Shown in pieces: positions 1 through 3,479 of a stretch of 64,000 bases of DNA (position 1 is the first letter of the stretch; each line of letters starts with the position of its first letter). The stretch is from the IMG/VR virus record IMGVR_UViG_2690316121_000006; one strand, written 5' to 3'. The DNA comes from a virus. Its lineage: Duplodnaviria; Heunggongvirae; Uroviricota; Caudoviricetes. A model generated the notes under the pieces. The model worked only from the letters and a program-made list of their open reading frames with translations, was not told where the DNA came from and did not search any database. Position numbers and translations under genes: made by a program.

Positions 1-558
1 ATATTTCGAACCAGGTTCCACAACATCGGCCTTGTAACTTAAAAACCATCCCGGATACAGATCCTGAAATGCTGGTGTATCATCACCCATAACCTTCCGC
101 AAAAACCCCTGATCACCCCAGCATTCAGTAGTAACACAACGAGCAATCCAACCTTCCGGATCTTGCCAGAATGCACTCCAGATATGCGCTTTTACACTAT
201 TTGGTATCCACAGGGCACCGCTACCACGATATTGTGGATGGTAAAAATCCCTAAGCATGGTGAAGCTGGTTGGTGGATTCTCAAGGATTGGGCGTATATC
301 ACCGGCAATAACCGTGTCCAAATCCAGATAGAACAGATCATCGGTTATATCCGGTCGGAACAACTCTATTTTCGCCCACCAGCCACGGCACTTTTGCCAC
401 TGGTTGATCAATGGGACAACTTTGACGCCAGGTACATGTAAACGCTTCAGGTCTGTCAGGCAAATAATTTCATAGCCTTTTGGCAGTTGATTAACCAGCC
501 ACTGCACATCGGAAGCGTTATAGTCACCACCAGAGCGAAGAACTAAAGCAATCTTCAT
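1..558 (-). CDS. hypothetical protein, N-terminal part only (runs off the left window edge); DxD-like motif
   Basis: Reverse ATG at 558-556 forms an ATGA junction with the stop of the phosphatase gene; frame open to position 1 ([20 protein letters not shown]...[15 protein letters not shown]...). Absent from ORF track because no stop lies in the window. Confidence 0.45.
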
Positions 559-1232
559 GCTGCACCATCACCTTTCACTTTCATCAATGTCAGGTTTCCG
601 CAAAATACGGCACCAGTGTCTATATAATGCTGATTCCAGAATGTCTTCTGGCTTTTCACCGGAGTGTGACCAAAGATAAAACGATCTGCGCCCGAAATTT
701 CGCCACCAATATCATCCATCGAATCACTGATACGCTCGCGCGCCCAGACAACGTTGAAAAGCGGCACCTCCTTACCGAATTGGTATTCATTATCCGGATA
801 GTCGGCATGGGCTATAACGATAGTTTCTTGCCCGGTGTTCAACTCAATGATATAGGGCAGACGCTTTACCAGCTCCACCAGCGCCCTGGCTAATATTTCC
901 TGATCAGTGTCCAGCATGAAGAACCATTGTCCGCCATTCATTAGCCAGTTATTCACGTTGCCATCAGGACTTAACGCATCGAGCATCAACCGCTCATGGT
1001 TCCCCATCACTGCCCTGAACCAGGGCATCTGCAATAGTTCCAGACATTCGACATTTTCAGTACCGCGATCGATAAGGTCGCCGACCGATATCAGTAAATC
1101 CTGCGCCGGGTCAAAATCCACACGATGGAGTTCGGACATCAGTCTGGTGTAGCAACCATGCAGATCACCAACAACCCAGACATTCCTGTATTTGGTACCG
1201 TCGATACGGTGATAAATTGTGGGTGCCATCAT
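555..1232 (-). CDS. Ser/Thr protein phosphatase, lambda-PPase/calcineurin-like metallophosphoesterase
   Basis: GDLHG, GDLIDRG and GNHE motifs; N-terminus aligns with lambda phosphatase from the 6th Met (start 1232, ATGA overlap with upstream stop), so the ORF-track start 1247 is probably too long. Confidence 0.85.
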
Positions 1233-1855
1233 GTATTCTTCAGCCATTCTTTAAGAGTCATCTGCGGAATACCTCCCATTTTCCCGCATGAAACAACGTC
1301 AATCTGTTCACGCGCAGACTGGAATAACAAAGGCAGGTGACTTAGATTTTTTGGCGTGCCGCCGGAGTGAACGCGTGGTTCTTGTGTAGCGTCAACGCCC
1401 ACCAGGGCGACATGTTTGAATCCGATATGGAAAGCCAGGTTCAGAGCGCCATATGCACTATTGCCGCTGGCAATTTCATTCTCATCTTCGCAAAGTCCGA
1501 AATGTGCGGACCAGCGCCACGCCCACCACTCGGGAGAATTCGTATTTTTTGGCTCCGTGCCGCGCTCAGCCACACGACGGAAGCACAGAACGCCGTCTCT
1601 GACCTCACGTTCTTTAACATCGGGTAGTGCCATGCAATAACAAACACCACGGCGACGGCGGCCACGACCAACGCGCCGCATATTGTTTGGCGATGGATCA
1701 AGTGTGAAAAAATAAGAAGCGCGGTTAAGCCAGTCGATGGCCCCATTGACCGCTATAATCGGCACTCCGCGCGGCGCAACAAAGTTTGCGGCGCTTGGGC
1801 CACTGCCGACGATAATAACGCGATCACTGCCTCTAAATTTATTCTTGGGAAACAT
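1229..1855 (-). CDS. hypothetical protein, GSGPS-motif paralog 1
   Basis: 208-aa ORF; N-terminal IIVGSGPS...[11 protein letters not shown] and later VALVGVD motifs shared with the adjacent upstream ORF; 3' end of that ORF overlaps this start by about 100 nt. Confidence 0.5.
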
Positions 1856-2415
1856 TGAATTGCACTGCTCCTACTTGCATTCAAAATATGTAAATCTGCG
1901 TGTTTTTTGCGGGTATCCATGAACTGCTGTTGCCATTTTGAAATAGACACCTGCGTTGGATTCCGTAGTGCTTGAGGGTGCGCGCCATGCCAATGAAGGC
2001 CGTTTTGCAGAGAACAGTCATAGCCGACTAATACCACTACTTCAGCCCCTGATTCAGCAGCCAGACTGATAGCCTGCGCGCCGCTATTTACCCCTTCCGC
2101 CGGTCCACAAAATCGCCTGTACTCCAACGAAAATGATTTCGCAGCCGCCAGGTTGGCTGTCACTTTGCGGAATCTCCCTCCCGGTATGGTGGATCCGTAT
2201 TGCTTCCACCATGACAAATCACCGGCGTATAAGGCATAAATGTCATCGAACATCTGCCAGGAATTGTTAACCGCGATGATTGAACAGCCAGTTTTTTCTA
2301 TAGCAGCACAGTCCTCACGAGTGAGTGACGGACCGCTACCGACACAAAAAACAGTCCTAGTCGCCCTGGGTGGTATGTTCATTCTCAGCTGCAAATTCAG
2401 CCTCCAGGCGAGCAT
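1753..2415 (-). CDS. hypothetical protein, GSGPS-motif paralog 2
   Basis: 220-aa ORF; FCVGSGPS...SIIAVNNSW...VVLVGYD motifs; paralog of 1229-1855. Confidence 0.5.
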   Translation of the reverse strand: MLAWRLNLQLRMNIPPRATRTVFCVGSGPSLTREDCAAIEKTGCSIIAVNNSWQMFDDIYALYAGDLSWWKQYGSTIPGGRFRKVTANLAAAKSFSLEYRRFCGPAEGVNSGAQAISLAAESGAEVVVLVGYDCSLQNGLHWHGAHPQALRNPTQVSISKWQQQFMDTRKKHADLHILNASRSSAIQCFPRINLEAVIALLSSAVAQAPQTLLRRAECRL

Positions 2416-2555
2416 TCATTTCAGCGATTACCGGGTCCACTACAGCATCTGCTTCCTGTTCATTACGCGGCATGACCGATGCCAGCGATTCATAATTAGC
2501 CTTGGATGACACGATTATTCTCCCGATGTTAATGTGCGCTACATCAAAGAGCACA

Positions 2556-2572
2556 CATGCACTAATTAATTT
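2556..2572 (+). promoter_or_regulatory. weak operator-like site (13/17 match to ATTGCTCTAATAAATTT)
   Basis: CATGCACTAATTAATTT in the gap between two reverse-strand genes. Confidence 0.25.
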
Positions 2573-2578
2573 ATTATT

Positions 2579-3157
2579 TCACGCAGCGTACAACCACTTG
2601 TCACCGTTCAATACATGCTCAATAGCCTCACCCTTTTTAAGGCTTATGTATTCCAGGATGACGGTTATCGCTTGTTCTGCACCATACGCAAGAACGACGT
2701 AGTAACCTTCCTCTCTAAGCCTGCGCATCCAGGCGATCTGCTCTTTCGTCGGGGCTTTACCATTTGGTTCTTTAAGCTCAATTCGCATGCCGTGATAAAT
2801 GCCGCATGCTTTATCGAGACTCATGTCCGGATAACCTTTTTTCTGCCCTTCAGCCTTCATTTTCCCGGCGGTTGCTTTTGAACGTTTCCCTCCGTTAGGC
2901 GTTGCATGCAACAGCTCATAGATGTCAGGGTGCTTGCGTTCGAAGTAATCAAAAATGAAAACCTGCTCGAAGTGCTCGCAATTTCCGTCGCGCAGGTCTG
3001 GGTTCTTTGCCAGTGCTGCAAGTGCCTTCGCATGTGGAGAAACTTCTTTTACCGGCGCAAGCGATAAGAATGGATCCTTTTTGGTTTTTGGCCTGGACCG
3101 CCCCTTATTTCGACGCTCACTAAAAGCCTGAAACTCTTCCTCAGTAAAGCGCAACAT
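2579..3157 (-). CDS. VRR-NUC domain nuclease-like protein
   Basis: C-terminal GYPDMSL...IELKEPNGK...EQIAWMRRLREEGYYVVLAYG pattern typical of VRR-NUC (PD-(D/E)xK) phage proteins. Confidence 0.65.
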   Translation of the reverse strand: MLRFTEEEFQAFSERRNKGRSRPKTKKDPFLSLAPVKEVSPHAKALAALAKNPDLRDGNCEHFEQVFIFDYFERKHPDIYELLHATPNGGKRSKATAGKMKAEGQKKGYPDMSLDKACGIYHGMRIELKEPNGKAPTKEQIAWMRRLREEGYYVVLAYGAEQAITVILEYISLKKGEAIEHVLNGDKWLYAA

Positions 3158-3159
3158 AA

Positions 3160-3405
3160 TCAGTCAAATCCTGCCGGTCGCATGCCATATTTACGCTGTT
3201 TTGCAGCCTGCTCTTCCCTGTGCCATTGCGCACATTCAGCGTCACAATAAATGCCTGATTCAATCGATTCATTGCAGTAACGACACTTCCCTGTAAATAC
3301 CTGGCTCACGACCTGTGCCTGCTTTCTGATGTTATCGATGGCCATGTCTTTGAGAGCTTCTAACTGATTCATGCTCAGCTCTGCATCATCAACACGTTCT
3401 GCCAA
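3160..3405 (-). CDS. TraR/DksA-family C4 zinc-finger protein
   Basis: 81 aa with CRYC-x17-CDAEC four-cysteine motif at the C-terminus; first gene of a reverse-strand operon. Confidence 0.7.
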   Translation of the reverse strand: MAERVDDAELSMNQLEALKDMAIDNIRKQAQVVSQVFTGKCRYCNESIESGIYCDAECAQWHREEQAAKQRKYGMRPAGFD

Positions 3406-3462
3406 TTTTGTTTCCTCGTGAAGAACCTACTTAAGGGCAGAATGATACATTTCACAATCAAA

Positions 3463-3479
3463 ATTGCACTAATAATTTT
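3463..3479 (+). promoter_or_regulatory. C1-type repressor operator-like site (15/17)
   Basis: ATTGCACTAATAATTTT in the divergent intergenic region 3406-3551. Confidence 0.4.

Follow-up and report, generated by a model that had tools for sequence, protein, structure and literature searches.

The pmgL–pmgQ block of a P1-type phage includes a widespread module of putative glycosyltransferases

Maf enzymes expressed in Escherichia coli carry out O-glycosylation of Ser/Thr with 3-deoxy-D-manno-octulosonic acid (Kdo) taken from the cytidine monophosphate (CMP)-Kdo pool (bioRxiv 10.1101/2020.06.03.131540). In mycobacteriophages, glycosylation of the virion by phage-encoded glycosyltransferases is described as established (Freeman et al. 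2023, as cited in PMC11256854). For the coliphage P1, our literature search turned up essentiality screens and transcriptomics for pmgO, pmgP, pmgQ and dbn but no functional assignment in any paper, and "pmg" stands in the P1 annotation only for "putative morphogenetic function", with no experimental basis for pmgL–pmgQ. Here we analyze these genes in a 64,000-nucleotide (nt) stretch of DNA from a virus of the class Caudoviricetes (IMG/VR virus record IMGVR_UViG_2690316121_000006; hereafter the window), and hypothesize that pmgO, pmgP and pmgQ belong to a module that builds a glycan. A preliminary description of positions 1–3479, made from the sequence alone, had read them as an early reverse-strand operon encoding a TraR/DksA-type zinc finger, a VRR-NUC nuclease, two paralogous proteins with an unexplained overlap of their genes, a lambda-type phosphatase and a partial protein with a DxD motif, and had proposed a host-takeover cassette.

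Positions 1–6000 of the window were compared with P1 base by base and are collinear with it at 98.6% identity (84 mismatches, 0 indels). By megablast, 18 P1-type phage records cover these positions fully at 98.0–98.8% identity, including P1 (AF234172 / NC_005856, nt 76007–82006, reverse strand), P7, SJ46 and RCS47, which is the best match (98.8%). The open reading frames are the same as in P1 in set and length, with 0–6 amino-acid changes per protein, and both C1 operators (Op82 and Op83) are identical. On this sequence match, the window is assigned to a P1-type phage or phage-plasmid. Because the two sequences are collinear with 84 mismatches and no indels, the P1 GenBank annotation transfers to the window, and the region is with virtual certainty P1 pmgL, pmgM, pmgN, pmgO, pmgP, ppp and the first 186 codons of pmgQ. 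The corresponding genes of P7 are named upf81.0, upf81.2, hdmA–D ("head morphogenesis") and ppp, and in RefSeq PmgO is labeled as a sialyltransferase and PmgQ as a glycosyltransferase. The locus is already known, with every gene of the block named since 2004, and its sequence features are an ordinary find.

The relationship between PmgO and PmgP is remote. BLASTP of one against the other gave an E-value of 0.004 over the N-terminal motif only, so family profiles were needed to establish paralogy. Homologs were collected for PmgO (51) and PmgP (327), and the resulting family alignments (A4 and A2) were compared with hhalign after a natural fusion of the two proteins had been left out. The families aligned over 161 columns with a probability of 98.2% and an E-value of 3.5e-14, which indicates that PmgO and PmgP, recognized as paralogs in the preliminary description from their GSGPS and IIAVN motifs, are real but remote paralogs; PmgP has an insertion of ~30 residues relative to PmgO. 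Invariant in both families are (S/G)-G-P-S, I-A-V-N, an Asp after strand 3 (PmgO D66/PmgP D53), W-W, the Ser of N-S-(G/A) (S111/S133) and the Asp of G-x-D (D133/D155). Further invariant residues of PmgO are N50, G131-Y-D-C-S135 and H141/H143.

Searches of the PDB with single sequences or single families of PmgO and PmgP returned no significant match, and only the merged superfamily profile and fold searches were informative on structure. In the fold comparisons, the top structural match for both proteins was the Maf flagellin glycosyltransferase 5mu5 (scores for the pair 14.3 and 13.5), followed by the archaeal MptE pterin pyrophosphokinase 8sd5 (11.5 and 12.6), the Campylobacter jejuni sialyltransferase CstI 2p56 (10.9 and 10.7), and thiamine pyrophosphokinases and sialyltransferases of glycosyltransferase family 29 (GT29; 7.5–10.3 and 7.0–9.2). 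Between 158 and 165 residues were aligned with Maf, vs 126–136 with proteins of the MptE/thiamine pyrophosphokinase type. The best sequence match of the merged profile in the PDB was CstII, at an E-value of only 0.14, in which KKVIIAGNGPSLKEID aligned with the GSGPS motif and ITSG…LSGID with the NSG…GxD motif. A search of BFVD with the pair found only unnamed or "MptE-like" viral proteins. PmgP-family member P0336 (P and L numbers are our handles for homologous proteins and loci) passes the cut-off of Pfam PF01973 at 44.1 bits, connecting the PmgO/PmgP family, as far as profiles can tell, to PF01973 (MptE-like/Maf_flag10/DUF115), with the P1 proteins as outliers. The modified GT-A/pyrophosphokinase fold of the PF01973 domain is present in both PmgO and PmgP. 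They are minimal single-domain members of the Maf/GT42/MptE superfamily, with PmgP the better conserved core member and PmgO an accessory paralog. The earlier guess of a "Rossmann-type transferase or kinase" came close, in that this fold is common to Maf/GT42 sialyltransferases and to MptE/thiamine pyrophosphokinases. Maf from M. magneticum has the catalytic acids E324 and D415 and a conserved Ser, and D66/D133 of PmgO and D53/D155 of PmgP are the candidate counterparts of the catalytic acids.

PmgQ is the partial DxD-motif protein of the preliminary description, and the motif is genuine: D79, L80 and D81 are invariant in 32 sequences. The single P1 sequence has no Pfam match at E≤1 and falls into PHROG 1962 "glycosyltransferase". 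When the PmgQ family profile was compared with the PDB, 22 GT8 chains were matched over ~170 residues including the DxD, the best being the Skp1 alpha-galactosyltransferase 6mw5 (E 1.5e-8), with glycogenin at E ~5e-6 and the GlyE-type GT8 enzyme 5gvv at E 1.6e-5. These profile matches identify PmgQ as a GT8-like, presumably retaining-type glycosyltransferase. P1 encodes another candidate in Dbn ("downstream of ban"), which has a weak Glycos_transf_1 match and is encoded 6 kb from pmgO–pmgQ in another operon. In the lytic coliphage vB_EcoM_IME392, a GT-B gene (L108 7713–8570) whose product is 51% identical to Dbn (E 5e-101) is located between pmgP-like and pmgQ-like genes, and in a Buttiauxella prophage a Dbn homolog with 38% identity (L101 9515–10501) lies 3 kb from Q–P. 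Because the IME392 homolog sits between P and Q, we draw Dbn into the same pathway as PmgO, PmgP and PmgQ, to which it probably belongs.

Linkage of these genes was surveyed in one genome per species (genome_contigs) and by looking up individual homologs; a scan of viral_contigs with the PmgP alignment gave 80 matches, all of them near-identical P1 copies without diversity. More than 15 lineages have O–P–Q, or just P–Q, side by side, among them Pantoea, Chimaeribacter, Citrobacter rodentium, Buttiauxella, Pseudescherichia, Pseudomonas, Ochrobactrum, Alloalcanivorax, Zhongshania, Microbulbifer, Methylophilaceae, Brevundimonas, Sinomicrobium (Bacteroidota) and Longimicrobiales. PmgP has the widest distribution of the three, with 510 cluster representatives (50% clustering) in a set of 1.84 billion proteins. 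The module occurs in many phages without pmgL, pmgM or ppp, and the insertion of ppp between pmgP and pmgQ is peculiar to the P1 lineage (L087–L089); in other lineages the O–P–Q modules lack ppp. O–P–Q is one self-contained module, with Ppp, PmgL and PmgM as passengers. Natural fusions join its members in several combinations: O::P (P0051), Q::O (L113 7162–8343, 393 amino acids), P::Q (P0300 and P0367), Q::P (P0388), Q::P::S-adenosylmethionine (SAM)-methyltransferase (P0350) and methyltransferase::P (P0386). Elsewhere, class-I SAM or FkbM methyltransferases, a Sulfotransfer_2 protein, a GT2-like protein and a nucleotide-diphospho-sugar transferase are encoded inside or beside the module.

The surroundings of the module vary between phages. 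In HK97-like prophages it follows the major capsid gene, in the order terminase–portal–protease–major capsid–[O–P–(methyltransferase)–Q]–head-tail connector (L097, L112, L105, L106 (no O)). A P–Q pair lies two genes upstream of a gp6-like head-tail connector in L098, where no capsid gene was identified. In L113 the module is found between head and tail genes together with a methyltransferase gene and a Sulfotransfer_2 gene that adjoins P. In lambdoid and other prophages (L004, L005, L101, L107 and L109) it neighbors the lysis cassette or comes first in the late operon. On the Pseudescherichia chromosome (L091–L095, metagenome-assembled genomes; e.g. L091 1343–7206), O/P/Q-like genes are interleaved with a gene for a 1177-residue inverse autotransporter, an intimin/invasin-type adhesin with seven Big_1 repeats, and one for a second Big_1 protein of 781 residues; this adhesin may be glycosylated. 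In L110 a P–Q pair stands by itself on the chromosome. The P1 proteins are free of transmembrane segments and secretion signals, and no gene annotated in the neighborhood was identified as a flippase or lipid-carrier-priming gene.

Because fusions join O, P and Q and their synteny is conserved across phyla, we treat PmgO, PmgP, PmgQ and Dbn as one pathway. That the first three act together in it is very probable, and that they are glycosyltransferases is likely, if less so. We put at even chances the fuller reading, in which they form a soluble, late-expressed glycan-building module that probably acts on a virion or surface protein. PmgO, PmgP and PmgQ, probably with Dbn, would work together as soluble cytoplasmic glycosyltransferases. 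PmgP and PmgO would transfer a CMP-activated ulosonic acid, and the donor would be CMP-Kdo, the only such donor in E. coli K-12. PmgQ, with its GT8-type DxD motif, and the GT-B enzyme Dbn would add hexoses from uridine diphosphate (UDP)-sugars, and in other phages the glycan might be tailored by methyltransferases, a sulfotransferase or extra glycosyltransferases. The acceptor is the least certain step. It could be a late-made protein, most plausibly a virion protein and in one chromosomal case a giant adhesin, with LPS (lipopolysaccharide) or DNA less likely; an acceptor among virion or surface proteins is in our estimate plausible, although its chances fall somewhat short of even.

Several observations weigh against a protein glycan. 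The link of PmgO, PmgP and PmgQ to any glycan would stem from sequence and fold, and the donor sugar was deduced solely from fold and host metabolism. PmgO and PmgP score 23.0 and 20.9 bits against PF01973, below its cut-off of 34.6 bits, and both matches are partial. Association with an adhesin is limited to a single genus, Pseudescherichia. The module lies near ribonucleotide reductase, ThyX or ligase genes in lytic or uncultured phages (L103, L111 and L108), and in P1 itself it is far from the capsid gene and is divergent from the genes of baseplate and tail. Of 29 pmg and upf genes knocked out singly in P1 by Gonzales et al. 2022, only pmgA, B, C, G and R proved essential; the remaining knockouts had no plaquing defect, their antirestriction was unchanged, and the proteins they lack were absent from the virion proteome (PMC9024508). 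Neither the pmg module proteins nor a glycan have been reported from the P1 virion proteome (PMC9024508), though standard liquid chromatography–tandem mass spectrometry would miss glycopeptides.

Remodeling of the LPS core is an unlikely alternative. PmgO and PmgP would act like WaaZ, which transfers Kdo to the inner core, and PmgQ like WaaO/WaaJ, so that the P1 receptor is masked or truncated late in infection; the supposed outcome, that progeny are not lost on debris or that superinfection is blocked, is unlikely to the same degree. GT8 does include LPS core transferases, P1 adsorbs to the LPS core, and LPS core assembly uses soluble or peripheral cytoplasmic glycosyltransferases, which the module proteins resemble in having no transmembrane segments. 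A precomputed Pfam search also has a faint match of the O::P fusion to PF27901 "WaaZ_KDO_III", and hhalign to K-12 WaaZ aligns the same C-terminal motif region in both families (E 0.0015 and 0.004). The similarity is not significant, however: hhalign gives a probability of 16% to the PmgP family and of 8% to the PmgO family, on alignments of just 75–79 columns, and WaaZ/GT73 membership was not supported. The best solved relatives of PmgQ are GT8 enzymes of protein glycans (Skp1 galactosyltransferase, glycogenin and GlyE), with no LPS GT8 enzyme in the list. A position inside the head-gene cluster of HK97-like prophages implies late lytic expression, too late for renewal of outer-membrane LPS, and the module is also found in contigs of Bacteroidota and Gemmatimonadota, whose LPS cores are expected to differ. 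A change to the receptor also fits poorly with the normal plating of the knockouts (PMC9024508). Rather less likely still is the glycosylation of phage DNA bases or of the nucleotide pool, possibly with Kdo, as an anti-restriction hypermodification. Phage glycosyltransferases that place Kdo, heptose and other sugars on 5-hydroxymethylcytosine (5hmC) are known (bioRxiv 10.1101/2023.12.21.572611), and the module adjoins a ribonucleotide reductase or ThyX gene in L103 and L111 and lies near DNA ligase and polymerase X genes in IME392. Glycosylation of 5hmC requires a methyltransferase and a dioxygenase to make 5hmC, whereas no such genes were found beside the module in the loci examined, and most prophage copies are located among head, tail or lysis genes. 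To our knowledge, P1 DNA is known only as methylated, and P1 relies on its Dar proteins against restriction. Counted on the same side are the unchanged antirestriction of the knockouts (PMC9024508) and the GT-B fold, like that of T4 beta-glucosyltransferase, of some DNA glycosyltransferases (bioRxiv 10.1101/2023.12.21.572611).

An equally slim chance is given to PmgO and PmgP being diphosphokinases of the MptE/thiamine pyrophosphokinase type, which activate a small molecule that PmgQ then uses or modifies. The Pfam family is indeed named after MptE, but Maf is the top structural match for both proteins and aligns over more residues, the G-S/N-G-P-S and NSG…GxD motifs align to the CMP-sugar-binding CstII, and the constant partners of the pair are glycosyltransferases and sugar-tailoring enzymes, with no obvious small-molecule pathway in the neighborhood. 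Very improbable, finally, is the early host-takeover cassette of the preliminary description, in which RNA polymerase would be modulated by a TraR-like factor, DNA cut by the VRR-NUC enzyme, host proteins dephosphorylated by Ppp, and kinase- or transferase-like paralogs deployed. Control by C1 would allow expression right after derepression, PmgL falls into a PHROG "DksA-like zinc-finger" family, and an accessory or counter-defence role is plausible for Ppp and PmgM. There is nothing, however, to connect the set with takeover. Elsewhere O–P–Q travel without PmgL, PmgM and Ppp and among late or structural genes, the block has an annotated late promoter, and the TraR/DksA membership of PmgL finds no support in Pfam or the PDB. 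The genes are also dispensable for lytic growth and plating by published single deletions and by CRISPR interference (CRISPRi) (PMC9024508, PMC10695390), an outcome that the preliminary description had itself named as speaking against its proposal.

The overlap of pmgO and pmgP, which had been estimated at about 100 nt, is exactly 103 nt, and its layout can be accounted for. pmgP has its own ATG at 1855, with AGGAG 12 nt upstream. The first 11 residues of PmgP are non-conserved, and its conserved core begins at R12-V-I-I-V-G-S-G-P-S; the conserved core of PmgO ends at about L-E-A-V-I-A-L (residue ~201), after which the last ~20 residues vary among homologs in length and sequence and are modeled with low confidence. 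The 11-residue leader of PmgP lies over the last conserved helix of PmgO, and the 20-residue tail of PmgO over the first strand and GSGPS loop of PmgP. Because leader and tail are non-conserved, the important part of each gene lies over the dispensable end of the other, and the two cores meet to within ~10 nt. Six other lineages share this layout, each with pmgP in the -1 frame, and their overlaps range from ~4 to at least 133 nt. In P0051, from a phage contig (L004), both cores are in frame in one protein of 376 residues with a linker of ~5 residues. The overlap most likely marks where two domain cores adjoin, at the junction of a split or fused gene, a layout that favors coupled, equimolar synthesis of PmgO and PmgP. 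In a phiNP-type prophage of Citrobacter rodentium (L005, 10001–11785), the gene caller shortened the pmgP-like gene to 176 residues starting at VTIIAVNG, and the upstream GSGPS part of that gene lies in the 94 nt that it shares with the pmgO-like gene. Starts in the PmgP family are probably misplaced systematically by automatic annotation.

A programmed -1 ribosomal frameshift at A_AAT_TTA (1840–1834, minus strand), yielding a PmgO::PmgP fusion like the natural fused gene, is hardly credible as an account of the overlap. In its favor, P1 has a canonical X_XXY_YYZ heptamer in the appropriate frame, all seven lineages examined place pmgP in the -1 frame relative to pmgO, and an in-frame O::P fusion occurs in nature. 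The heptamer AAATTTA is limited to the P1 lineage, however, being absent or misplaced in the other six, and the downstream RNA is no more structured than its shuffles (z = +0.36). A shift would also remove the nearly invariant E195 and the last helix of PmgO, and pmgP can start from the ATG and ribosome-binding site of its own. With neither a conserved heptamer nor a stimulatory RNA structure, the frameshift was rejected. At the other end of PmgO, annotated residues 1–17 are predicted to be disordered, and in most homologs the chain begins 0–8 residues ahead of the first strand. Translation may in fact begin at M12 (ATG at 2382), and this start would cut the pmgN/pmgO overlap from 59 to 26 nt. 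A good Shine-Dalgarno sequence is found at neither start candidate (M1 or M12).

The remaining genes of the block were also compared with known families (Table 1); an NCBIfam search gave no match for PmgL, PmgM, PmgN, PmgO, PmgP or PmgQ. All reading frames listed in the preliminary description are present on the minus strand, but the description overlooked the internal operator and the 51-residue pmgN, which belongs to no recognizable family. The zinc finger attributed to PmgL stands in part. PmgL, which is 100% identical to P1 PmgL, matches PHROG 54 "DksA-like zinc-finger" (E 1.6e-12), but it has no Pfam match at E≤1, including to zf-dskA_traR, and no PDB match to TraR, DksA or any other relative. 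Its Cys spacing is C-x2-C-x9-C-x3-C, and that of the canonical TraR/DksA finger is C-x2-C-x17-C-x2-C. PmgL is best described as a predicted C4 zinc-finger protein with a possible TraR-type function. The nuclease and the phosphatase were correctly recognized. PmgM matches the VRR-NUC structure 4qbl in the PDB (E 9.7e-18), with Y-P-D-M and I-E-L-K (PD…ExK) visible in the alignment, scores 21.2 bits against Pfam VRR_NUC, just below the cut-off of 23.8, and belongs to PHROG 5702 (E 8.6e-27). Ppp scores 59.4 bits against Pfam Metallophos (cut-off 21.5), belongs to PHROG 246, and matches the PrpA/B-like NCBIfam model PRK11439 over residues 8–224 (E 1.9e-83) at 279.8 bits, below the equivalog cut-off of 326. 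In the CRISPRi study of Piya et al. 2023, pmgL, M, O, P, ppp, Q and dbn were nonessential, and pmgN was scored "essential", at odds with its nonessentiality by deletion (PMC10695390). dCas12a bound at pmgN sits just downstream of the internal operator Op83 and the promoter there. Polarity or a blocked promoter may account for the discrepancy, or there may be more to pmgN.

The operator-like site placed at the start of the block by the preliminary description is the C1 operator Op82/O26. It is a real operator, because the window holds seven matches to the C1 consensus, counted at a threshold of ≤3 mismatches, vs 0.32 expected from shuffles. The six other matches lie at 13781–13808 (an overlapping inverted pair), 17314–17330, 33386–33402, 35057–35073 and 62189–62205; dispersed C1 operators are as expected for the scattered immunity-controlled operons of P1. 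Op82/O26, predicted sigma-70 promoters and LPpmgL lie upstream of pmgL, back-to-back with the operon 26-25-7-24-6-5 (baseplate and tail), and the operator is common to the divergent pmgL and gene 26 transcription units. Expression had been called early, which fits repression by C1 but leaves out the late promoter that is also annotated upstream of pmgL. Nor is the block one simple operon: because the internal operator Op83, which has 4 mismatches to the consensus and so falls outside our scan, and a predicted promoter are annotated in P1 between pmgM and pmgN, the genes are annotated as two C1-controlled units. Within these units the genes are tightly packed, with a 2-nt gap between pmgL and pmgM and overlaps of 19 nt for pmgP/ppp and 4 nt for ppp/pmgQ. 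The pmgL–pmgQ block is a mosaic of accessory genes, not one machine.

Table 1. Genes and regulatory sites of the pmgL–pmgQ block, with dbn, by position in the window
Feature	Position	Strand	Description
LPpmgL late promoter	3494–3512	minus	P1 annotation by collinearity; -22 box 3504–3512 common to LP26
Op82/O26, C1 operator	3463–3479	plus	ATTGCACTAATAATTTT, 2 mismatches from consensus; identical to P1
pmgL	3160–3405	minus	81 aa, four Cys; C41-x2-C44-x9-C54-x3-C58
pmgM	2579–3157	minus	192 aa, VRR-NUC (PD-ExK) nuclease, Holliday-junction-resolvase-like type
Op83 (Oppp), internal C1 operator before pmgN	2556–2572	plus	P1 annotation; identical to P1
pmgN	2357–2512	minus	51 aa; GGGAG ribosome-binding site upstream; PHROG 2350
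pmgO	1753–2415	minus	220 aa; motifs VGSGPS and IIAVN; single domain, Maf/GT42/MptE fold
pmgO/pmgP overlap	1753–1855	minus	103 nt, pmgP in -1 frame
pmgP	1229–1855	minus	208 aa; motifs VGSGPS and IIAVN; single domain, Maf/GT42/MptE fold
ppp	555–1247	minus	230 aa, lambda-type (NinI/PrpA-like) Ser/Thr protein phosphatase
pmgQ	1–558	minus	first 186 of 233 codons, extends past window start; D79-L80-D81 at 324–316
dbn	8350–9348	minus	GT-B (group 1) glycosyltransferase; Pfam Glycos_transf_1 E 3.3e-5

Elsewhere in the window, positions ~35500–37930 have no megablast match in any phage record, including P1, and coincide with the lowest G+C content of the window (35% at 36–38 kb); similarity returns at ~37925, in pmgC. 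Relative to reference P1, this segment appears to be an insertion or a replacement specific to the lineage.

For pmgO, pmgP, pmgQ and dbn, four "function unknown" genes of a model phage, the analysis adds a testable glycan-pathway hypothesis. If P1 virions, or another late-made protein, prove to be glycosylated, virion glycosylation would be extended from mycobacteriophages to a Gram-negative model phage for the first time, in a genetically tractable system for which P1 knockouts are already available, and a minimal two-subunit Maf-like transferase would be defined. It would also be relevant to phage therapy, through immune recognition and clearance, and to P1-based delivery vectors. A glycan could shield particles from antibodies, proteases or surface defences, a role that would explain its invisibility in laboratory plaque assays. 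We entertain only tentatively the larger idea of a previously unrecognized cytoplasmic protein-glycosylation system that would place a short ulosonic-acid glycan (Kdo in E. coli) on virion proteins or, once, on an adhesin. It is just as speculative that PmgP and PmgO, as minimal Maf/GT42-like transferases, would form a heteromeric pair in such a system beside the GT8 enzyme PmgQ, often joined by a GT4 enzyme (Dbn), by methyltransferases or by a sulfotransferase, and that phages of Proteobacteria, Bacteroidota and other phyla would share the system with P1 through several hundred related modules. Should no glycosylation take place, the module would still be a widespread accessory cassette in need of an explanation.

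The window shows no substantive difference from the P1 pmgL–pmgQ region, and the informative comparisons are those with better characterized enzymes and systems. Ppp matches the NCBIfam models of E. coli PrpA and PrpB over its full length and, according to the P1 annotation, is 64% identical to the lambda protein phosphatase (NinI); unlike these enzymes, it is encoded inside a glycosyltransferase module, only in the P1 lineage, and is dispensable. The MptE-type 6-hydroxymethylpterin diphosphokinases and the thiamine pyrophosphokinases carry out a different chemistry, the transfer of a pyrophosphoryl group from ATP to a small molecule, whereas PmgO and PmgP have no folate or thiamine context and have glycosyltransferases as constant neighbors. 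WaaZ, the LPS core Kdo III transferase of E. coli K-12 (GT73; 283 residues), is encoded in the chromosomal waa cluster and matches the pair weakly in the same C-terminal motif region, although its Kdo donor would suit the host. The GT42 enzymes CstI and CstII of C. jejuni (PDB 2p56 and 1ro7/1ro8) have a sequence similarity to PmgO and PmgP that is not significant when taken alone; CstII acts on lipooligosaccharide and is a membrane-associated tetramer, and E. coli K-12 makes no CMP-sialic acid. Maf (PF01973/Maf_flag10, PDB 5mu5), a protein of ~600 residues, carries additional domains on its N- and C-terminal sides, and its gene belongs to flagellar glycosylation islands. PmgO and PmgP, unlike Maf, are bare domains of ~200 residues that form a phage-borne paralog pair with a GT8 partner, and their neighbors are never flagellar genes. 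Compared with the GT8 enzymes that act on protein-linked glycans (glycogenin, Skp1 galactosyltransferase and the GlyE type), PmgQ is shorter, at 233 residues. A parallel at the level of the system would be that of mycobacteriophages such as Che8 and its relatives in cluster F1, in which, as summarized in PMC11256854, soluble glycosyltransferases, and in others methyltransferases, modify capsid and tail proteins. Glycosyltransferase and methyltransferase genes also lie among structural genes in the module homologs of L097, L098, L105, L106, L112 and L113, though not in P1. Compared with the mycobacteriophage systems, the module described here is known from its genes alone, belongs to phages of Gram-negative hosts, and may differ in its enzyme families, combining Maf/GT42-like proteins with a GT8-type partner.

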